The notes under the pieces: generated by a model
Databases searched by the model: none
The model's input: the letters and a program-made list of their open reading frames with translations, nothing else
What the model was told of the DNA's origin: nothing
In this document: piece by piece, positions 6,300-34,036 of the stretch
Position numbering within the stretch: the first letter of the stretch is position 1
How the letters are laid out: each line of letters begins with the position of its first letter
Made by a program: the position numbers and the translations under genes
From: a virus
Virus record (IMG/VR): IMGVR_UViG_3300044568_004364
Reading direction: 5' to 3' (one strand)
DNA: 64,000 nt

Positions 6300-7400
6300 T
6301 TATTTGTATCCTTTGTAATATTCTGCACGCATATCATCAATAGCAGCACGGTCATATTGTGCTCCAATGATTTCGGTAAGTTTTAAGAATGCTGCCATCT
6401 TTTCGGCATTATCTCGTTCAGCATCACCACGATATAATCCTTGTGCGCCTTTTTCAAATAATATATTTGCAAATGCATTGATTAATCGTGTTTGTTCTGC
6501 TGGTGCAATATATTTCTTAATGAGTTCCGCTGCGCCAATAAACGAATCCATCATCTTCATATCCGCATCTGATGGCGTACGCTCAAAGAGTACTTTAAAG
6601 ATAACTTTAAGATCCGTAATATATGTTGATTCACTTGTTGGTATTTCACGATAGACATATAATCCATCCTGCATCATGTGTTTACCTACGCCATCTAGGA
6701 CTGGTGCTATTTTGGTGCGCAATCCATGCTGTACACTAAATGCAAGATCAGATGCTTTAATTTTCGTAGGTGTTTCTTTCTTACCTTTAAGAATGATAAT
6801 ATCACGCAGTGTTTTTGCAGATGCTGCTCTCATAATGTATTTATGAAACACACCTTTAATACCTGCTGTAATATCATTCCATGCAGATGAATGCGAGAAC
6901 ATGCTCCATGCTGTTGGTTTGCCATAAGCAAAGTCAACAAGTTCCATATCTACTTGAATGTTAATGCCAAACTCTGGGAAAGCCCAAAGCGTAATATATT
7001 GCCCCGCGCTTTTCTTAAATCCAATGAGTGAAGCATCACCAAAAGTTTTACCAGTTATGGCTTTAAGAAACTCGCCAAGGTTTTCATCTTGTATCTTATC
7101 AACCTGAGTATCTACATCGCCTACTGTATTCTTATACTTAGTAAATTCGGCTGTAGGAATTGCGCGGTTAAAAAAGTGGAATGCGCTGCCGCTAAGAAAC
7201 TCCTTGCTCTTAAAGAGTTCGCCACTCCATAATGGTAGTCCATACTTTTTCTTGTATGCTTTGTTAACTGCATCTAGTGTGCGGTCAATTTGCACCGTTA
7301 CACTATCACGGTTAATCTTTGTTAGGTCAATGCGATCTGCACCTTGGTCGCCCAACATTAAATTTCCGCCTTCAAGAATATATTGTTTAAATGATTTCAT
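6300..7400 (-). CDS. Pol-beta-superfamily nucleotidyltransferase-like protein
   Basis: SGS...GDVD...QVD motif; start MKSFKQYILE; late promoter at 7437-7444. Confidence 0.65.
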   Translation of the reverse strand: MKSFKQYILEGGNLMLGDQGADRIDLTKINRDSVTVQIDRTLDAVNKAYKKKYGLPLWSGELFKSKEFLSGSAFHFFNRAIPTAEFTKYKNTVGDVDTQVDKIQDENLGEFLKAITGKTFGDASLIGFKKSAGQYITLWAFPEFGINIQVDMELVDFAYGKPTAWSMFSHSSAWNDITAGIKGVFHKYIMRAASAKTLRDIIILKGKKETPTKIKASDLAFSVQHGLRTKIAPVLDGVGKHMMQDGLYVYREIPTSESTYITDLKVIFKVLFERTPSDADMKMMDSFIGAAELIKKYIAPAEQTRLINAFANILFEKGAQGLYRGDAERDNAEKMAAFLKLTEIIGAQYDRAAIDDMRAEYYKGYK

Positions 7401-7460
7401 GTGATTTTGTAGCCAATAACTTTACTCGTAATAATCTATTTATAATAGATGCAACTTAAA

Positions 7461-7549
7461 TGGCGGAAGCAGAGGGACTCGAACCCCCGAGGGCTTTATA
7501 GGCCCCAGCTGTTTTCAAGACAGTGTCCTCGACCAGCCGGACTACTTCC
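7461..7549 (-). tRNA. tRNA-Ser(TGA)
   Basis: Cloverleaf, long variable arm, GCCA end. Confidence 0.95.
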
Positions 7550-7558
7550 ATAAAATTT

Positions 7559-7635
7559 TGGTACACAGGGTGGGACTCGAACCCACAAAACCTTGCTTCT
7601 AAGGCAAGTACGTAAACCAATTCCGTCACCTGTGC
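7559..7635 (-). tRNA. tRNA-Leu(TAG) with short variable arm
   Basis: Loop CTTAGAA, CCA end. Confidence 0.9.
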
Positions 7636-7637
7636 AT

Positions 7638-7957
7638 TGGTGGAGACGACGGGAGTTGAACCCGTGTCCATGACGTGTGCGATTATACAATCTACAACTT
7701 ATTCTCATTTATTCAGACGAGACTCTTAGACACTTATCGTTGTGTCACGACAGCGTTATTCACAATGCTGTACAAATAGATACCGTTCGTGGTATCAACT
7801 ATCCTATGCCGTGCGAATGACAATATAGGAGTCATGTCATTCGACTCACTTAAGCAGCGAGAGCAAGTGTATTTTTGCCGTTTAGTTTTTTGACGAAGGG
7901 AGTCACCCGTGTGTTGCAATATAATCTCTCATGTCATGTCGAAACCATGACATCCCC
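7638..7957 (-). ncRNA. ssrA: tmRNA
   Basis: 5' GGGGATG...TTCGAC, 3' GGGTTCAACTCCC...CTCCACCA, tag frame GKNTLALAA* at 7850-7879. Confidence 0.93.
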
Positions 7958-7964
7958 ATTAAAA

Positions 7965-8528
7965 TTAATTATTTCGATTTTTCCAAACTTTTGCCGCGCG
8001 GAAAAGATGTGCTCCAACTTCATCATGCAGACGATCATCAAATCCCATTCCACCAAACCCGCCATAAATCATATAGTTTGATAGTGTGAAAAACAATTCT
8101 TCCAATTCATCTTCATCTATATCTTCTGCAGCTGCCATTATTTTACGAACAAGTGGATATGTTGGAGTTTTAAGAGCTTCATCAATTGTTTCTTCAACAA
8201 GATCTACTTTCTGATTTTTTTCAAAAGGAACTACGGTTGTATAGTTTCCAGCTTTTACACGTATGTTTACCAGTTTCCCAGGATGAGTTTTTGAATCCAT
8301 TGCGTCATCTGTCGCAATAACAGTATATGCTTTTGAGATGTCTACACCTTTTCCTGGGATTTTTAGATTTGCTTTAAAAGAGTCGCCCTTCTTAATGTCT
8401 TTTGCAATTTTAGTGTTGGACATTTCTTGGAGCTCAACTGTTTCATCTAATTGAGTGCATCCTGTTAAGATCTTTGTGGCCGCAGCTATAAGCGGATCGT
8501 TTTTAATGTTTGTGAAGTTTTCTTTCAT
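7965..8528 (-). CDS. Hypothetical late protein
   Basis: N-terminus ENFTNIKNDPL shared with the neighbouring gene. Confidence 0.7.
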   Translation of the reverse strand: MKENFTNIKNDPLIAAATKILTGCTQLDETVELQEMSNTKIAKDIKKGDSFKANLKIPGKGVDISKAYTVIATDDAMDSKTHPGKLVNIRVKAGNYTTVVPFEKNQKVDLVEETIDEALKTPTYPLVRKIMAAAEDIDEDELEELFFTLSNYMIYGGFGGMGFDDRLHDEVGAHLFRAAKVWKNRNN

Positions 8529-8536
8529 ATCTGTAT

Positions 8537-8827
8537 TTATTTATTTGGTCTTTTAGAAAAACGTTCTGCTGCTTTTTTAAGAAATAGCGCAGTTTCAATA
8601 TAATCATCATCTCCGTCGCGTTGGCCATTCCATTGAGTCATATATTCAAGACCATATAACAAATCTTCAAATTCCTTGGCGTCAAGCTTTGTAATTCCAG
8701 ATAGTAATTTAACTGCAGCTGGTGTTTTTGCTATACGTGAATCAGCTTCATGCAATTGACTGCCTATGATTTTTGCGGCGGCGGCTACAAGCGGATCGTT
8801 TTTAATGTTTGTAAAGTTTTCAGTCAT
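8537..8827 (-). CDS. Hypothetical late protein, partial paralog of 7965-8528
   Basis: Shared N-terminus; TATAAATA at 8841-8848. Confidence 0.7.
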   Translation of the reverse strand: MTENFTNIKNDPLVAAAAKIIGSQLHEADSRIAKTPAAVKLLSGITKLDAKEFEDLLYGLEYMTQWNGQRDGDDDYIETALFLKKAAERFSKRPNK

Positions 8828-8853
8828 ATTGTTATTTATCTATTTATAAAAAT

Positions 8854-8927
8854 TGGTAGCCCATGCTGGTATCGAACCAACTTCTCACGGGTCAAAGCCG
8901 TGTGCATTACCTTTATGCTAATGGGCA
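8854..8927 (-). tRNA. tRNA-Gln(TTG)
   Basis: Cloverleaf, CCA. Confidence 0.93.
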
Positions 8928-8929
8928 AT

Positions 8930-9004
8930 TGGAGTTGCGTGTGTGAATCGAACACACCAAGACGAGATTTGCAATCTCGCGCCTAACCATTTGGCTTACG
9001 CAAC
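8930..9004 (-). tRNA. tRNA-Cys(GCA)
   Basis: Cloverleaf, TCCA end. Confidence 0.93.
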
Positions 9005-9009
9005 AAAAA

Positions 9010-9099
9010 TGGCGGAGACAGCAGGATTTGAACCTGCGCAACCGATCAAGGTTGACTACTGTTTAGCAAACAGCTACATTACCACTCTGTCATATCTCC
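9010..9099 (-). tRNA. tRNA-Ser(GCT)
   Basis: Cloverleaf, long variable arm. Confidence 0.93.
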
Positions 9100-9102
9100 G
9101 TA

Positions 9103-9176
9103 TGGTAAGGGATGAAGGTAACGCTCCCTCGTATATTGCGTGTAAAGCAATCGTTCTACTTTTGAACTAATCCCCC
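9103..9176 (-). tRNA. tRNA-Val(TAC)
   Basis: Cloverleaf with non-canonical T loop AGCGTTA. Confidence 0.85.
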
Positions 9177-9276
9177 ATTATAAAAATTTGAAGGCCCGTT
9201 AACATCAACACTTTGGAGATATTGACATGCGAGTTCAACCGACGGGCCAAGCGGTTTAGACACCCTCTCGCAAAAA

Positions 9277-9288
9277 TGGTGCACTCTC
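9277..9288 (-). pseudogene. 3' fragment of disrupted tRNA-Arg(ACG)
   Basis: GAGAGTGCACCA pairs with the GCACTCT acceptor at 10279-10285. Confidence 0.8.
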
Positions 9289-9344
9289 AATTCATCAGTT
9301 TATTATATATTATGTACATTTATTTTAAATTATATAATACAAAA

Positions 9345-9419
9345 TGGTGGCCTGTTGAGGAATCGAACCTCAATTTGGAGTTTCGTAAACTCTCGTCTTA
9401 TCCATTGGACCAACAGGCC
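9345..9419 (-). tRNA. tRNA-Arg(ACG), intact copy inside the HNH insertion
   Basis: GGCCTGT/ACAGGCC+ACCA, loop TTACGAA. Confidence 0.9.
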
Positions 9420-9424
9420 TTTTT

Positions 9425-10198
9425 TTATTTATGTCTTCCAAATTTCCATCCATCAGGAGGTAATTCATTTTTTTCAATACGTGCAGATTTTGTTCCATTG
9501 TTAATCCAAACAGTATCAACACTTGAAAATTTCATATTACCAGAATCAATTTGTTTACGCATTCGAATTTTAGCCGAATCAGAAAGTTTTTTTCTAGTTT
9601 TTTTATCTAGTGTTTTACCTTTTCTATTTTTTATTTTTAATAAATGAAGACATTCAGATGAGCACGTTTTATATGTCTTAGAACATTTAAGCTTTAAAAA
9701 AGTACAATTACATATAACACATGTAAAAATTATTTCTATATTTTTCCACTTATTTCTTCCTAAAATCCATCCTTCTGGTATTTTGTCTTCTTTTAATATT
9801 TTTTTATTTTCTTGTAATTCAATATTGCACATCCAACGAGTTCCATATTGTGAATTGCACTCACCACTTTGAGAAATTTTCATACGTTTTGATGCCAATT
9901 TAGAGTGATGTTTTCGAATTTCTTCATACAGACGAGAATTCTTAATATAGGATATACTGCGCTCTTCACATCGCATCGCCATCATATGGCATGCATGAAT
10001 TGTTTGACTATTCTTATGAATCTTATAAAGAAGGATGTGGGCGATCCAATGTTCTCTTCCAGTTAAAACTACTAGATTAGAAGTATCATCAGATCCGCCC
10101 ATTGATTTCATCAAGATATGGTGCTTTTCAGTATATCCAGTTGCCGGATTATTTTGTCGATATGAAATTAGATTATCGTAAATACGTTGGTAGTTCAT
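9425..10198 (-). CDS. HNH homing endonuclease
   Basis: MNYQRIYDNLI...EKHHI...GGSD..NLV.LT.REH..AH; WINNG-type C-terminal repeats; late promoter at 10204-10211. Confidence 0.9.
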   Translation of the reverse strand: MNYQRIYDNLISYRQNNPATGYTEKHHILMKSMGGSDDTSNLVVLTGREHWIAHILLYKIHKNSQTIHACHMMAMRCEERSISYIKNSRLYEEIRKHHSKLASKRMKISQSGECNSQYGTRWMCNIELQENKKILKEDKIPEGWILGRNKWKNIEIIFTCVICNCTFLKLKCSKTYKTCSSECLHLLKIKNRKGKTLDKKTRKKLSDSAKIRMRKQIDSGNMKFSSVDTVWINNGTKSARIEKNELPPDGWKFGRHK

Positions 10199-10226
10199 AA
10201 ATGTATTTATACAAATGTGAACTTTA

Positions 10227-10285
10227 CGAACCCCGGACCTCACGGTTCGTAGCCGTGTGCTCTGATCCAGCTGAGCTAAGAGTGC
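10227..10285 (-). pseudogene. 5' part of disrupted tRNA-Arg(ACG), ending at GGTTCG
   Basis: GCACTCTTAGCTCAGCTGGATCAGAGCACACGGCTACGAACCGTGAGGTCCGGGGTTCG followed by unrelated DNA. Confidence 0.88.
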
Positions 10286-10342
10286 ATAAAAAAAAGACTG
10301 CAAGATGCAGCCTCTTTCCGTTAAAGTTATTCTTGTTAAGAT

Positions 10343-11035
10343 TTAAAATTTTGCGGCAACTTGTACTGCTTTAGCAATATCTTTGAATTTATTGTTATCA
10401 TCTGCTTTAATTAGCACACCTTCAGAACTAAATGAAGAATATTTTGACCAAGGCGTACTGCCATCACCTGTGTTTATGAGACCAGATGGTAACTTGACAA
10501 ATCTCTTTGCACCATCTTTATAAACTACGCAACCAGAACCACAATAGATCATGTCATTAACTGGCTGACCGTTTACTGCTTCAGCATCTTTATTATTTGC
10601 TTTAAGACCGCCGTCAATCATTGGCTCGCCAATACGATCTTCATTTGCAGCTAAAAAGCTATCATAATTGTGTGGTCCCTTTTTAGTCCAAACTGTAATA
10701 TTTGGATCAGATTGGCCACTTGCTTCGTGTAGCCCAGGCATTGCCAAAATAGCTTTCTTAAGATCACCAAGTTTAACCTTAGCACTAAAACCATCTTTAT
10801 CAATTAATCCACCCTTTACAGTCTTGTCTTTATATACAAGTTCGGAACCGTCAAAGTAAAGATTTTTTGAACCGCCAGTAGCAGCTTTAATCTTTGGATC
10901 CTTCACAAGATGCGTAATGATTTCAGTTTCACTCTCAAAGTCAGAGAGTGTTGAAGCGTCATTGAGTGTATATTCTTTCACTGCTGCTTCAGATAGCAAG
11001 AAATTCTTTGCGATGTTAATTAGACCGTCTTTCAT
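10343..11035 (-). CDS. Hypothetical late protein
   Basis: Start MKDGLINIAK behind TATAAATA at 11050-11057. Confidence 0.7.
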   Translation of the reverse strand: MKDGLINIAKNFLLSEAAVKEYTLNDASTLSDFESETEIITHLVKDPKIKAATGGSKNLYFDGSELVYKDKTVKGGLIDKDGFSAKVKLGDLKKAILAMPGLHEASGQSDPNITVWTKKGPHNYDSFLAANEDRIGEPMIDGGLKANNKDAEAVNGQPVNDMIYCGSGCVVYKDGAKRFVKLPSGLINTGDGSTPWSKYSSFSSEGVLIKADDNNKFKDIAKAVQVAAKF

Positions 11036-11069
11036 AATAGTTATATGTTTATTTATAATAATTGATTTT

Positions 11070-11145
11070 TGGCACGGAGAGTGAGAATCGAACTCACCCA
11101 ACAAGATTTGGAGTCTCGTTCGCCAGCCTTGGGACATGCCTCCGC
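11070..11145 (-). tRNA. tRNA-Trp(CCA)
   Basis: Loop CTCCAAA, GCCA end, irregular D arm. Confidence 0.85.
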
Positions 11146-11166
11146 ATAATCATATTTATAATAAAA

Positions 11167-11243
11167 TGGTACGCCCACTCGGATTCTAACCGAGGATCTA
11201 TCCATTATGAGTGGATTGCTTTGGAACGCTAAGCTATAGGCGT
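11167..11243 (-). tRNA. tRNA(CAT), probably Ile2
   Basis: Loop CTCATAA; 5' end ACGCCTATAGCT resembles the Ile(GAT) gene. Confidence 0.8.
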
Positions 11244-11253
11244 ATTTGAAAAT

Positions 11254-11333
11254 TGGTACTCCTGATGGGGGATTGAACCCATGACCTCCCACTTATAAGG
11301 CGGGTGCTCTGACCACGACTGAGCTACAGGAGC
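11254..11333 (-). tRNA. tRNA-Ile(TAT)
   Basis: Loop CTTATAA, ACCA end, bulged T stem. Confidence 0.8.
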
Positions 11334-11337
11334 ATTA

Positions 11338-11412
11338 TGGTCCACACTGACCGTAACGATCGGTCCTCTCAAGATTTTCAGTCTTGTGCTAATCCATCTC
11401 AGCTAAGTGTGG
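11338..11412 (-). tRNA. tRNA-Phe(GAA)
   Basis: Loop CTGAAAA, T loop ATCGTTA. Confidence 0.87.
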
Positions 11413-11419
11413 AGAAAGT

Positions 11420-11494
11420 TGGTAGACGTTCTGGGTAATGCTCCCAGTTCTCATGGTTAAAAGCCATGTGCTTCACTATTAAAGCTTAACGTCC
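11420..11494 (-). tRNA. tRNA-Lys(TTT)
   Basis: Loop CTTTTAA, T loop AGCATTA. Confidence 0.87.
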
Positions 11495-11498
11495 GTTA

Positions 11499-11575
11499 TG
11501 GTACGACTAGAAGGATTTGAACCTTCGACCCCAGCTTTATCAAAGCTGTGCTCTGACCATCTGAGCTATAGTCGT
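11499..11575 (-). tRNA. tRNA-Ile(GAT)
   Basis: Cloverleaf, CCA. Confidence 0.93.
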
Positions 11576-11585
11576 ATTAAAAAAG

Positions 11586-11658
11586 TGGAGATGACAGAAC
11601 TCGAATCTGCAACATCCTGCGTGCAAGGCAAGCGCTCTACCAATTGAGCTACATCCCC
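11586..11658 (-). tRNA. tRNA-Ala(TGC)
   Basis: G3:U70 acceptor; CCA not fully encoded. Confidence 0.9.
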
Positions 11659-11667
11659 TTTGAAGTT

Positions 11668-11746
11668 TGGTGGTTGTGATAGGATTTGAACCTATATACT
11701 TAGACTTATGAAATCTACTTCTTACCAAGTCGAAATTCACACAACC
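11668..11746 (-). tRNA. tRNA-Met(CAT), elongator-like
   Basis: Loop TTCATAA, ACCA end. Confidence 0.85.
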
Positions 11747-11754
11747 ATTGAAAA

Positions 11755-11832
11755 TGGTCAGAGAGGCAGGATTTGAACCTGCGTTGTTCCTAGTTCCAAA
11801 CTAGGTGTGTTAGACCGCTCCACCACCCTCTG
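11755..11832 (-). tRNA. tRNA-Pro(TGG)
   Basis: Cloverleaf, CCA. Confidence 0.93.
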
Positions 11833-11845
11833 ATAAAAATTAAGT

Positions 11846-11929
11846 TGAAACACTTCTGCAAGATATACATACTCTTCGTCCGAAGACTTCAGCCATCACG
11901 CTGGTGGAAGAGCCCGTCCCTATGTTTCA
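11846..11929 (-). ncRNA. Candidate structured RNA (three-way junction, UUCG tetraloop)
   Basis: TGAAACA/TGTTTCA, GCTCTTC/GAAGAGT, GTC-TTCG-GAC. Confidence 0.5.
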
Positions 11930-11952
11930 TGAGCCCGTTTAGGTAAATTAGA

Positions 11953-12025
11953 ACTAGACTGTAGATTGAAGCCTACACTTCTCACGTACTGTCGTGAGGT
12001 CCTTAACGCTTAGACGAAGTCTAGT
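11953..12025 (-). ncRNA. Degenerate tRNA-like RNA with 8-bp acceptor
   Basis: ACTAGACT/AGTCTAGT, CTCACG/CGTGAG, TGTAG/CTACA. Confidence 0.5.
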
Positions 12026-12029
12026 AAAT

Positions 12030-12193
12030 TGGATGACACACGCTGAAGTTTGAGAGGCAGAAATTTGTTCAAGTATCCGGTCTTGTCGAGATATTGTTTT
12101 GTTTCGGTCTAAAAGACTTACTCCGTAAATCCGCACTCGCAGTCACCCTCTCTTATGGTCTCGTAAATTACATCAGCTAGACCGTCTGTGTCA
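12030..12193 (-). ncRNA. CCA-ended ~164-nt non-tRNA RNA
   Basis: TGACACA/TGTGTCA+TCCA, GCTGA/TCAGC, GAGAGG/CCTCTC. Confidence 0.55.
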
Positions 12194-12197
12194 AAAT

Positions 12198-12271
12198 TGG
12201 TACGCCATGTGGGAGTCGAACCCACGCCTCGAACTTGGAAGGATCACGTGCTACCGTAACACTTATAGCGC
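12198..12271 (-). tRNA. tRNA-Gly(TCC)
   Basis: Cloverleaf, CCA. Confidence 0.9.
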
Positions 12272-12280
12272 TTTTGAAAA

Positions 12281-12356
12281 TGGCTCCCGAGGCACGACTC
12301 GAACGTGCAACATCTGAGTTAACAGCTCAGCGCATCTACCATTGAGCTACTCGGGA
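12281..12356 (-). tRNA. tRNA-Asn(GTT)
   Basis: Cloverleaf, GCCA. Confidence 0.93.
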
Positions 12357-12365
12357 GTTGAAAAT

Positions 12366-12530
12366 TGGTATGTCCATAGCATTGCGGCCTACGACTCACT
12401 TAGGACTGAAGCTAGCTACTGAAGATCGTAGCGATCTTTAATTATGATACACTGACATTATCTTCAGCACGGAATTTCAAGCCTGTATGCATACACATAT
12501 GCACCTAACTCACCGAATAGTATCATAATT
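12366..12530 (-). ncRNA. CCA-ended ~165-nt multi-hairpin RNA
   Basis: 11-bp AATTATGATAC/GTATCATAATT stem, TGCATA/TATGCA, AAGATCG/CGATCTT, ends ATACCA. Confidence 0.5.
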
Positions 12531-12535
12531 GAAAT

Positions 12536-12612
12536 TGGAGCCTCCTATCCGACTTGAACGGATAACCTGCTCATTACAAATGAGCTGCTACTGCCAATTG
12601 AGCTAAGGAGGC
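12536..12612 (-). tRNA. tRNA-Thr(TGT)
   Basis: Cloverleaf, TCCA. Confidence 0.93.
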
Positions 12613-12623
12613 ATTAAAGAAAG

Positions 12624-12720
12624 TGGATTTGAGCAGTCAGGTTGTCATCCTGATAGTGACTAGCCAGAGAATGGAGGAGTTGAACCTCCTTTTACTTAGT
12701 CCGAGTTCTCGCTGCTCAAA
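12624..12720 (-). ncRNA. CCA-ended RNA with an internal T arm
   Basis: TTTGAGCAG/CTGCTCAAA+TCCA; GGAGG-TTCAACT-CCTCC. Confidence 0.6.
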
Positions 12721-12722
12721 AA

Positions 12723-12798
12723 TGGTCCGCGGTCATGGACTTGCACCATATTCGCTGCCGTCACAAGGCAGGACATTACTACATATGCTAACCTCGGA
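12723..12798 (-). tRNA. tRNA-His(GTG)
   Basis: Loop TTGTGAC; U-1:A73 instead of G-1:C73. Confidence 0.85.
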
Positions 12799-12804
12799 AT
12801 AAAA

Positions 12805-12893
12805 TGGTGTACGCGGTTGGAATCGAACCAACGATGTTTCTGATGAGCAGGGTTACAGTCTGCCGCCACACAACCAACAGTAGCCTCACGTAC
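12805..12893 (-). tRNA. tRNA-Tyr(GTA)
   Basis: Cloverleaf, long variable arm. Confidence 0.9.
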
Positions 12894-12903
12894 TTTTGAA
12901 AAT

Positions 12904-12978
12904 TGGTACTGCCACGGGGAGTTGAACCCCGCTCTAATGGTTGAAAACCATTTGTCCTAACCGATAGACGATGGCAGC
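12904..12978 (-). tRNA. tRNA-Glu(TTC)
   Basis: Cloverleaf, CCA. Confidence 0.93.
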
Positions 12979-12992
12979 GTTGGAAAATTAGA

Positions 12993-13127
12993 TGAACATC
13001 AAGCGAAGCAAAATACGGAATCGAACCGTCCCTCCCGTTTTCACGACGGGCGCGCAAGCCATTACACAATAATTGCCATCTTTGACTCAAGGCCTGCAAG
13101 CCTCTCTTCTCAGAGTCTCGATGTTCA
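12993..13127 (-). ncRNA. RNA with a tRNA-like domain nested in an outer stem
   Basis: TGAACATCGAG/CTTGATGTTCA encloses a cloverleaf at 13007-13077. Confidence 0.6.
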
Positions 13128-13154
13128 CTTAACGAGAGTTGCAGCTCTCAAAAT

Positions 13155-13233
13155 TGGTCTCCTAGGTGAGAGTCGAACTCACAATATCACCGCCCCTTGA
13201 AGGCAGTCGCTTTGCCAGTTTGCGTACACGGAG
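13155..13233 (-). tRNA. tRNA-Leu(CAA) with short variable arm
   Basis: Loop TTCAAGG, ACCA end, two acceptor mismatches. Confidence 0.8.
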
Positions 13234-13479
13234 GATTGAAAAATTGTACGGTGTTTTCTTTGGATTCAGATCACCGAAATTCTGAATAATCATTGCATTC
13301 GTAATAGCTGCAGCGTTAACCACAGTTACAATAGTAACGAAATTAGTACTGCCACGGGGGAGTTGAAATGGGAGTGTACGCAGAACCTTCTACTGCAACA
13401 TGGGTTTGTAAGCCACTATCAACGCACGATACACTGGCATGCTGTTGGTATTCTCTCAATATGAATATTGAGATTAAAT

Positions 13480-13554
13480 TGGTTGCGGCGGGTGGGATTC
13501 GAACCCACGTGCACGGCTTATGAGACCGTTGAGTTACCTCTACTCTACCCCGCG
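13480..13554 (-). tRNA. Initiator-like tRNA-Met(CAT)
   Basis: CGCGGGG start, C1:A72 mismatch, AACCA end. Confidence 0.88.
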
Positions 13555-13913
13555 ATTGAAAATCTTAACTGTAACGGTATCACAGTCATGCTCCGATGGG
13601 ACTACCCATACTGTTGAAAATGTTCGGTCTTTTCTTTTACATCAGGCGACCGACACCCTGATGGCGTGCATATTATACGATATATGCAAACGAGTAAAAT
13701 TATTGACTACTCATAAAAACCTCGTTTATGATGACACCTATTTGTGCTCGCTTGGGCGTTTCAGGTACTCCCTCGTCATGAACCTTGAATTACTATTTAT
13801 ATATTGTTGAGATATTATATATACTTTTTTATGAAAGTAAATAACTTTTTTTCAACTTTTTTCTTGATCGGAACAGCTTCGATTTATTTACCGTTGCCGT
13901 TCGTTACGAGATT

Positions 13914-13942
13914 ATTATACACTATTTTTTGCGCAATGTAAA
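13914..13942 (-). promoter_or_regulatory. Early promoter of the tRNA cluster (late TATAAATA also at 13794-13801)
   Basis: TTTACA-N17-TATAAT. Confidence 0.75.
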
Positions 13943-13996
13943 TAACTTTATGCAAAAAAATGCATATTCCTATATTGTATATGGTGTAAAAGACGC

Positions 13997-14035
13997 AAAA
14001 AACCGCATCTAAGCACGCGGCCAGATGCGGTTTTT
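13997..14035. terminator. Bidirectional intrinsic terminator
   Basis: AAAAAACCGCATCT...AGATGCGGTTTTT. Confidence 0.75.
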
Positions 14036-33220: not shown

Positions 33221-34036
33221 ATGAAATTTTACGCTCGAATCTATTATAACATATGTAATGAAAATGTAAATAACAAAATTCATTATTGTAAAGGATCAAA
33301 CATACATAAACATCATATCATTCCACGACATGCGGGCGGCGGAGAAGATGAAAGTAATTTTACTTACCTTAGTATTAGACAGCATATAGCAGCACATTTC
33401 TTATTGTGGAAAATTCATGGTATGGTTAATGACCTACGATCAATGCATATGCTAGGAGCAAATTTAACATATGAACAAAGACGTATTGTTGGCAAATGGT
33501 GTTATGAGAATAAGATAGGAATGTTTTCAATTGGTAAGGAAGATCGAGCTGAAATTTCACGTAAAGGAATTAAGACACAAATTAAAAATAAATTAGGCAT
33601 TCACAATCCAGAAAACTTTTCAAAATTTGCATCACTTGGTGGAAAAGCTTCAATAATTTCGCCCAATAACCCATGGGCGTATTGGGCCTCAAAGGAAGGC
33701 CGCTCGAAGCGTGGACATATGGGAGGAAAATCACATATTGGTAAATTATGGATTCATAAAAACGATGTTATAACACGATGTCTTTATAATGAAATTCAAC
33801 AAAAAATTGATGAAGGATGGCAATACGGTATGAAAGATGGTGGAAAAGAATATGTGAATAACGGAGAAAAAACATTTCGTATTGAAACCAATAAGATATT
33901 TGAATTGCTTTTGCGTGGTTGGCAATTAGGAAAAGCACGCAATTACCAACCAGATCGCAAGCGGTCTAAGAAAGAATTTTCTTATGAATCCTTACTCGAA
34001 TTGGAGTCTCAGGGTGAACACAGCCGGCAAGAATAA
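33221..34036 (+). CDS. HNH homing endonuclease, antisense within the fractured helicase
   Basis: HKHHIIPRHAGG...N...L..RQH..AH; TATAAATA at 33184-33191. Confidence 0.9.
   Translation: MKFYARIYYNICNENVNNKIHYCKGSNIHKHHIIPRHAGGGEDESNFTYLSIRQHIAAHFLLWKIHGMVNDLRSMHMLGANLTYEQRRIVGKWCYENKIGMFSIGKEDRAEISRKGIKTQIKNKLGIHNPENFSKFASLGGKASIISPNNPWAYWASKEGRSKRGHMGGKSHIGKLWIHKNDVITRCLYNEIQQKIDEGWQYGMKDGGKEYVNNGEKTFRIETNKIFELLLRGWQLGKARNYQPDRKRSKKEFSYESLLELESQGEHSRQE

Follow-up and report, generated by a model that had tools for sequence, protein, structure and literature searches.

We describe a cassette that is inserted into a transfer RNA (tRNA) gene of a large freshwater phage and that carries, besides the gene of an HNH homing endonuclease, a complete and divergent tRNA gene with the same anticodon as the one it breaks. 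The cassette lies in the window, by which we mean the whole stretch of 64,000 nucleotides (nt) that was analysed; the window is part of a 100.8-kb contig of IMG/VR (record IMGVR_UViG_3300044568_004364) that is ~51% complete. The broken gene is a tRNA-Arg(ACG). We consider it likely, from the arrangement of the sequence and its relatives, that the cassette is a mobile 'tRNA-swap' homing element, whose HNH gene would break the resident tRNA-Arg(ACG) and bring along a divergent, complete substitute (the cargo). Related enzymes appear to do likewise to at least ten other tRNA types, which looks like a general way to invade and to replace tRNA genes.

The layout was first noticed from the letters of the DNA, in what we call the sequence-only reading: the 5' 59 nt and the 3' end of a tRNA-Arg(ACG) flank a late-promoter word, an HNH gene and a complete, very divergent tRNA-Arg(ACG). 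This structure was borne out in all its parts. The same reading took the cassette for an intronless homing element that destroys its target and complements it with a cleavage-resistant tRNA. Here the structural side stands, and comparative support has been added by the recurrent T-loop layout, by empty sites and by a link between the C-terminal domain of the enzyme and its target; the functional side we continue to infer.

A tRNA-Arg(ACG) gene broken by a 937-bp insertion

The broken tRNA, the parts of the insert and the cargo are all encoded on the minus strand. The 5' part of the resident tRNA-Arg(ACG) (10227..10285), now a dead fragment, comprises its first 59 nt and breaks off in the T loop behind TTCG, between tRNA positions 57 and 58. 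It derives from a bacterial-looking tRNA-Arg(ACG), scores 25.1 bits in Rfam, less than the gathering score of 29, and receives no call from ARAGORN. The 3' part (9277..9289) consists of 13 nt, namely the last T-stem bases, the acceptor strand, the discriminator A and CCA. Between the two parts lies the insert of 937 bp (9290-10226). Its left end (10212..10226) contains the word (T)AAAGTTCR, which is conserved in an alignment and a junction listing of 18 cassettes and resembles a repeated T-loop half. There follow TATAAATA (10204..10211), a predicted late promoter that has the T4-type consensus and stands 5 nt ahead of the start codon, and the open reading frame (ORF) of a free-standing, T4 Mob-like HNH homing endonuclease of 257 amino acids (9425..10198). 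Five bases separate this ORF from the cargo (9345..9419), a complete 75-nt tRNA-Arg(ACG) with encoded CCA that is called by ARAGORN and scores 54.8 bits in Rfam. The right end of the insert is an AT-rich spacer of 55 nt (9290..9344), which does not occur in intact alleles.

Such intact alleles, which the sequence-only reading had named as the first thing to look for, were recovered by exact-word scans of IMG/VR and JGI/ENA metagenome contigs. On four contigs (L079, L077, L078 and L002) the tRNA-Arg gene is unbroken within the same flanks. The background of L079 is near-identical to the window on both sides: the two have in common the terminator hairpin upstream and, downstream, an element of ~100 nt followed by tRNA-Val and tRNA-Ser. 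L077 and L078 carry the intact gene without the ~100-nt element, and in L002 the intact gene has one base changed in each half. The 59-nt part of the window is identical to the intact gene of L079, L077 and L078 and differs from L002 by 1 nt; the 13-nt part is identical to the intact 3' end of L079. Compared with the intact alleles, 6 nt (AATCCC) of T loop and stem are gone from the window. The borders can thereby be given exactly. The 3' end had been placed at 9277-9288 (12 nt) and is indeed present, one base longer; the loss from the T arm, first put at about 7 nt, is real and amounts to 6 nt. None of the empty-site alleles at the Arg locus has a second tRNA-Arg beside the target. Relatives with conserved flanks thus differ by presence and absence of the insert, the window being filled and L079, L077, L078 and L002 empty.

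The filled allele is not confined to the window. An identical HNH protein is encoded on 14 contigs (L080 and L081 come from other samples), L080 keeps the gene order of the window in another sample, and both junctions are bridged without differences by contigs of four further lake or freshwater runs (2017-2024). Because the gene is whole within these flanks in four relatives, one of which has a near-identical background, the split allele is an insertion, neither an intron nor an artefact of assembly; because the split form recurs in these independent samples, it is not an assembly error. That the source is a metagenome contig could suggest a chimera of two phage strains, an explanation whose probability is negligible given that the same junctions are found in contigs from several samples and studies.

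An intron, or a split tRNA with two halves that come together as RNA, is scarcely credible either. Both ends of one tRNA do flank the insert on the same strand, and group I introns classically reside in tRNA genes (PMC2330249). The six T-arm nucleotides missing relative to the four intact alleles speak against joining of the halves, as does the lack of any intron family match to Rfam in 7000-14000 at E up to 1; on these two counts the view of the sequence-only reading that the halves are not spliced holds good. Moreover, the non-coding DNA of the insert (28 + 5 + 55 nt) is not enough to form a ribozyme core, the 3' half is missing altogether from most sister cassettes, and the break lies in the T loop, not in the anticodon loop.

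A second locus offers the reciprocal case. The window carries an intact tRNA-Leu(TAG) (7559..7635, minus strand) directly after the gene of its transfer-messenger RNA (tmRNA). In L082, a relative of the window's phage, the tmRNA is followed by a fragment of tRNA-Leu(TAG), an HNH gene, a complete but different tRNA-Leu(TAG) and tRNA-Ser. In alignments the first 59 nt of the window's tRNA-Leu(TAG) equal the fragment ahead of the L082 HNH gene, the break again falling after TTCG. Since the fragment-type tRNA-Leu stands whole at the same place, the window is an empty site for the L082 cassette, and presence and absence are found at the Leu-TAG locus too, with L082 filled and the window empty. L002 has the cargo-type tRNA-Leu only, without an HNH gene; ahead of this tRNA stands the spacer by which, in L082, the cargo is set off from the stop codon of the HNH gene. 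By its sequence, L002 would represent either the state after loss of endonuclease and fragment or the source of the cargo.

The reverse assignment, with the complete tRNA as resident and the fragment as passenger of the HNH gene, was considered because the cargo of L082 equals the resident tRNA-Leu of L002. It was rejected: in the window the tRNA-Leu at this place is of the fragment type and unbroken, and the empty sites at the Arg locus hold the fragment-type gene.

The same layout at other tRNA genes

The surroundings of six homologues found by protein look-up and of 15 further IMG/VR cassettes were fetched. All close homologues examined (50-82% identity) sit in tRNA arrays, where they interrupt one or another tRNA gene, always at the equivalent point of its T loop. 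Ahead of each HNH gene stand a 5' tRNA fragment broken off within the T loop, the left-end word and a late-promoter word; TATAAATA or a one-base variant of it stands at the equivalent place in nearly all related cassettes. After each HNH gene comes a complete tRNA, 0-20 nt away or overlapping the gene, often at its stop codon. Four of these cargo tRNAs were missed by ARAGORN and found by Rfam.

The anticodons of the fragments were read directly from the sequences. In 16 of the 17 readable cassettes, covering 11 anticodons, the cargo has the same anticodon as the fragment or, in one case (L090), stands for the same amino acid. Fragment and cargo agree in Arg-ACG in the window and in L092 (the cargo of the variant L090 reads GCG, still Arg, as against ACG in L092), in Arg-TCT in L095, in Val-TAC in L004, L094, L099 and L103, in Leu-TAG in L082 and L089, and in Leu-TAA in L085. 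The remaining pairs are Gln-TTG (L083), Lys-TTT (L087), Gly-GCC (L097), Thr-CGT (L101), Tyr-GTA (L104) and Trp-CCA (L098). Because such arrays hold 25-35 different tRNAs, chance agreement is excluded, even if only the 11 anticodon types are counted as independent. Fragment and cargo are dissimilar in sequence in every case, so that the cargo is not a local duplication of the resident. In the window, the cargo has 60% identity with the resident gene as it exists unbroken and is the sole tRNA-Arg(ACG) that ARAGORN finds on the 100.8-kb contig.

The junctions differ between the two ends. On the left (e.g. window 10212-10230, minus strand), a word of 5-7 nt that resembles the T-loop half stands 3-4 nt behind it, and this second T-loop-like word sometimes co-varies with the first across cassettes: in L101 both copies share a rare base, and in L087 and L082 the copies are identical (in L101 and L087 just upstream of 1501). 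The repeated word may have arisen by templated duplication or may belong to the enzyme's site. On the right the junctions vary, with a loss of 6 nt in the window, a duplication of 11 bp in L104 and loss of the full 3' part in L082. Remnants of the 3' part were sought behind the other cassettes and found in L104 only, where both tRNA-Tyr halves are kept around the insert. As an 11-bp stretch of the T arm flanks both sides of the L104 insert (1455-1465 and 2437-2447), its target was duplicated rather than deleted.

A scan for an intact version of the tRNA-Val fragment of L004 gave six filled contigs only. In L105 (~1468-2226) the HNH gene is frameshifted near its start and no tRNA fragment is readable; this looks like a decaying copy of the cassette. 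The Arg cargo tRNAs of L090 (2732-2808), L092 (2232-2308) and L095 (2152-2229) are without a D arm and have a long variable region that contains a D-loop-like word; they receive no ARAGORN call and score 29-34 bits in Rfam. The array of L004 further contains a second tRNA-Arg(ACG), duplicate Asn and Ser tRNAs, and a GIY-YIG-like ORF (1227-1895) between tRNA-Met and tRNA-Arg(ACG). The latter was considered as an instance of the same layout and rejected, there being no recognisable tRNA fragment in front of it.

A modular endonuclease and its proposed mode of homing

By sequence, the HNH protein is a member of the T4 Mob-like homing endonuclease family with its HNH positions intact. It matches PHROG 655 ('homing endonuclease') over residues 1-231 with an E value of 3.8e-42. 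With tblastn, 972 phage records were matched, many of them annotated as homing endonuclease or mobB, and the first ~150 residues are 39-47% identical to homing endonucleases of the T4 Mob type and of Vibrio and Rhizobium phages. Pfam matches remain below their cut-offs (HNH_5, 19.6 bits vs 27.5; HNH, 16.3 vs 21.4). In an alignment of 54 sequences with the window protein as first row, N41, H50 and H54 are invariant and H26/H27 nearly so. An AlphaFold model reached a mean predicted local distance difference test score (pLDDT) of 89. Foldseek found no match to this model at E<=0.001, with weak rows of Cas9-HNH and McrA only; VIA-align of the model gave helical matches only, with Z up to 6.1, and a profile search of PDB sequences yielded no match to the protein. 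A search of a large protein database gave at least 250 homologues with E<=1e-10.

The protein is composed of an N-terminal nuclease domain of ~150 residues and a C-terminal domain with a four-cysteine cluster. Since most homologues are 60-82% identical across the first 60% of the protein only, the C-terminal 100 residues are variable. We split 17 proteins at residue 152 of the window protein and compared identities by a label permutation test. C-terminal identity is 25.1% between enzymes with the same target amino acid and 14.1% between those with different ones (p=0.0002), whereas N-terminal identity is 64.0% and 63.9%, respectively (p=0.5). In its N-terminal part the window's enzyme is closest to the Leu enzyme of L082, a member of the window's phage group (82%), and in its C-terminal part to the Arg-ACG enzyme of L090 (39%). 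Apart from a 10-nt word around the anticodon loop, and the T loop, the fragments of the window and of L090 have little in common. The designs of the two cargo tRNAs are unrelated, and each departs from the shared 10-nt word at two or three positions. A working hypothesis suggested by these comparisons is that recognition of the tRNA-specific anticodon arm would fall to the C-terminal domain, and that the nuclease domain would act 20-25 bp away in the T loop. I-TevI and I-HmuI are other modular homing endonucleases of this two-part kind.

For the mode of spread, we propose the following. During a mixed infection the enzyme would bind the intact allele of a relative and nick or cut it at or near the T loop, its variable C-terminal domain probably reading a tRNA-specific part of the gene, perhaps the anticodon arm ~20-25 bp away. 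Recombinational repair would then copy the cassette from the carrier genome. The carrier itself would be immune because its target is split into 59 nt and 13 nt that lie 937 bp apart, with 6 nt lost. The cargo would escape recognition through its differing sequence and, if expressed and charged, would replace the decoding function destroyed by the insertion. Later loss of the endonuclease and the fragment, a direction of change that we infer, would leave the cargo as the new resident and could thus bring about isoacceptor turnover in phage tRNA arrays.

Several points weigh against this proposal. The four further runs that bridge the junctions gave the filled allele only and no joint that skips the insert, a result that makes no statement on absence of the empty allele there, and the two alleles were thus not found together in one sample. 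In L093 fragment and cargo are mismatched (a Phe fragment with a Gly-like cargo). As the contig is about half complete, another tRNA-Arg could lie elsewhere in the genome. Exact-pattern scans of IMG/VR for the window's cargo returned no other copy, and among the tRNA-Arg(ACG) genes of the fetched loci the best identity to it is <=73%. The Mob enzymes of T4 are reported to nick and not to cut both strands (PMC13096335). Finally, the resemblance of C-terminal domains among cassettes in one tRNA type may reflect common ancestry and not selection for specificity; L094 and L099, both Val cassettes, also have related cargo tRNAs.

A simpler enzyme could be imagined, namely a generic cutter of the universal T-psi-C motif that lands by microhomology, with a cargo that is dragged flanking DNA, selection sparing the combinations with the same anticodon. 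Precedent exists in SegB, which recognises GGTTCRANTCC and cuts several tRNA genes (PMC2330249). All left junctions lie at the universal T-loop position, followed by the second T-loop-like word, the right junctions of the window, L104 and L082 are heterogeneous, and the mismatch of L093 would also fit. Yet the C-terminal domain tracks the type of the target tRNA and the nuclease domain does not. Such a cutter would moreover endanger the other 20-30 tRNA genes of the phage and the cargo itself, as cargos often have a canonical T loop. The empty-site alleles without a second tRNA-Arg beside the target indicate that the cargo came with the enzyme. We therefore regard a generic cutter as improbable.

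Less probable still is an adaptive replacement of the tRNA in which the endonuclease is a mere vehicle. The cargo would then escape a host defence that cuts tRNAs, or decode better; the HNH enzyme might be inactive today and the break of the gene incidental. Phages can use their tRNAs against defences that cleave tRNAs, and phage T6 is rescued from Septu when SegB drives the amplification of tRNA-Tyr (PMC13096335). The cargos are consistently divergent, some lacking a D arm, and L002 keeps only the cargo-type tRNA-Leu. However, the HNH reading frame and the catalytic positions are intact in the window and in nearly all cassettes, and a mere vehicle leaves the constant T-loop insertion point and the target-linked C-terminal domains unexplained. 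An advantage of the cargo is compatible with a homing element rather than opposed to it.

Beyond the single cassette, we put forward more tentatively, with slightly more doubt than conviction, that the homing element belongs to a widespread, modular and retargetable 'tRNA-swap' class. Its 5' module (the late promoter and the conserved HNH nuclease domain) would recombine freely within a phage lineage, and its 3' module (the variable C-terminal domain, reading one type of tRNA gene, and an immune cargo with the same anticodon) would set the target. Such a class would be among the chief causes of mosaicism and of isoacceptor turnover in the tRNA arrays of phages, would leave replaced alleles free of the endonuclease (as L002), and may spread tRNA variants, including those without a D arm, that evade host defences which cut tRNAs.

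Known systems and the tRNA array of the phage

The closest described system is SegB of phages T4 and T6, a GIY-YIG endonuclease encoded between two tRNA genes that recognises the T-psi-C motif, cuts tRNA genes in related phages and takes adjacent tRNA genes with it (PMC2330249; PMC13096335); in this it offers a precedent for the proposed homing element. Like the window's cassette, SegB is a selfish endonuclease in the tRNA array of a T4-like phage, directed at the conserved T-psi-C region, and it displaces the tRNA markers of a rival phage while spreading with neighbouring tRNA genes. The window's enzyme differs in being of the HNH and not the GIY-YIG type. The gene of SegB lies between whole tRNA genes, whereas that of the window lies inside one, at tRNA positions 57/58. 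For SegB neither a broken target fragment nor a dedicated replacement with the same anticodon has been described, and the window's cassette has both. Recognition by SegB is degenerate across many tRNA genes, in contrast to the family of the window, in which the C-terminal domain varies with the tRNA type.

Among the Mob enzymes, mobE splits nrdA in phage Aeh1, and mobA goes with the bypass element of gene 60. MobA-E of T4 resemble the window's enzyme in that they belong to the same family by sequence, are free-standing and have late-type promoters; some Mob genes likewise interrupt a host gene, the function of which is saved by a device that comes with the insertion. In the Mob cases the split gene is kept working, through two-piece proteins or ribosomal bypass, whereas in the window the split gene is abandoned and a different copy delivered, and the target is an RNA gene. 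A T4 Mob-family cassette is that of mobE with nrdB/I-TevIII (PMC2790892).

Intronless homing is known from SegF and others, which PMC13096335 cites. Intronless, intron and intein homing have in common with the window that close relatives differ by presence and absence of the element and that the insertion, by breaking up the recognition site, protects its carrier. Intronless elements are located in intergenic DNA, and intron or intein elements restore the gene by splicing; the window's cassette, in contrast, sits inside a gene and substitutes its function.

Two cultured Vibrio alginolyticus phages, VB_VaC_SRILMA and TDDLMA (PP083314, PP083315), encode an HNH protein 47% identical to that of the window over the nuclease domain. 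As in the window, a fragment, here of tRNA-Thr(TGT), precedes the HNH gene and a complete tRNA-Thr(TGT) follows at once (L129; record PP083314.1, 71539-72360, for VB_VaC_SRILMA). Their fragment stops in the anticodon arm and not in the T loop, and the annotation gives just 'homing endonuclease' and tRNA-Thr. Rhizobium phage LG08 has a related HNH gene followed by tRNA-Asn, with a fragment upstream that is not clear-cut. No paper on this layout was found in the literature searched, most subscription journals lying outside its reach, and a homing layout that breaks one tRNA and replaces it with another is apparently undescribed so far.

Homing endonuclease genes are thought to persist in essential genes only via self-splicing introns or inteins, or else beside genes. 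The layout described here would add a third strategy, in which the gene is broken and a substitute delivered. If confirmed, it would help to explain the mosaic tRNA arrays of large phages, their tRNA fragments and duplicate isoacceptors, and the endonuclease genes so frequently annotated beside tRNAs. The family also offers natural sets of nucleases with C-terminal domains apparently tuned to different 70-nt targets, useful for the study of how DNA-recognition specificity evolves. The cultured Vibrio phages with related cassettes make the idea directly testable.

The source of the window is an uncultured freshwater phage, since its DNA recurs across many lake-water runs. Its T4-like traits are the TATAAATA words preceding genes and a gp63-like RNA ligase. 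A search of GenBank phages with the region gave no close relative by megablast and, by blastn, tRNA and HNH pieces only; the family of L004 likewise had no close relative there. According to ARAGORN and Rfam, ~25 tRNA genes and the tmRNA form a long array on the minus strand. The tmRNA (7638-7957, minus strand; 93.8 bits) lies at the end of the array and encodes the tag GKNTLALAA. It is also present, with the same tag, in L082, where the sister HNH cassette comes after it. A distant second HNH paralogue (33230-33466, plus strand; 39% over 75 amino acids) lies outside the array.

Rfam adds three tRNAs without an ARAGORN call, at 9106-9176, 11423-11494 and 11674-11741, all on the minus strand; the first reads as tRNA-Val(TAC) and has a non-canonical T loop. 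The ~100-nt element (9177-9276, minus strand), which adjoins the old 3' end of tRNA-Arg, is structured and matches no Rfam family. It is present in the window, L079 and L002 and absent from L077 and L078, where tRNA-Val comes directly after tRNA-Arg. A 7-nt loop word of the element pairs with a word ~50 nt downstream, and within this pairing L002 has two compensatory changes.

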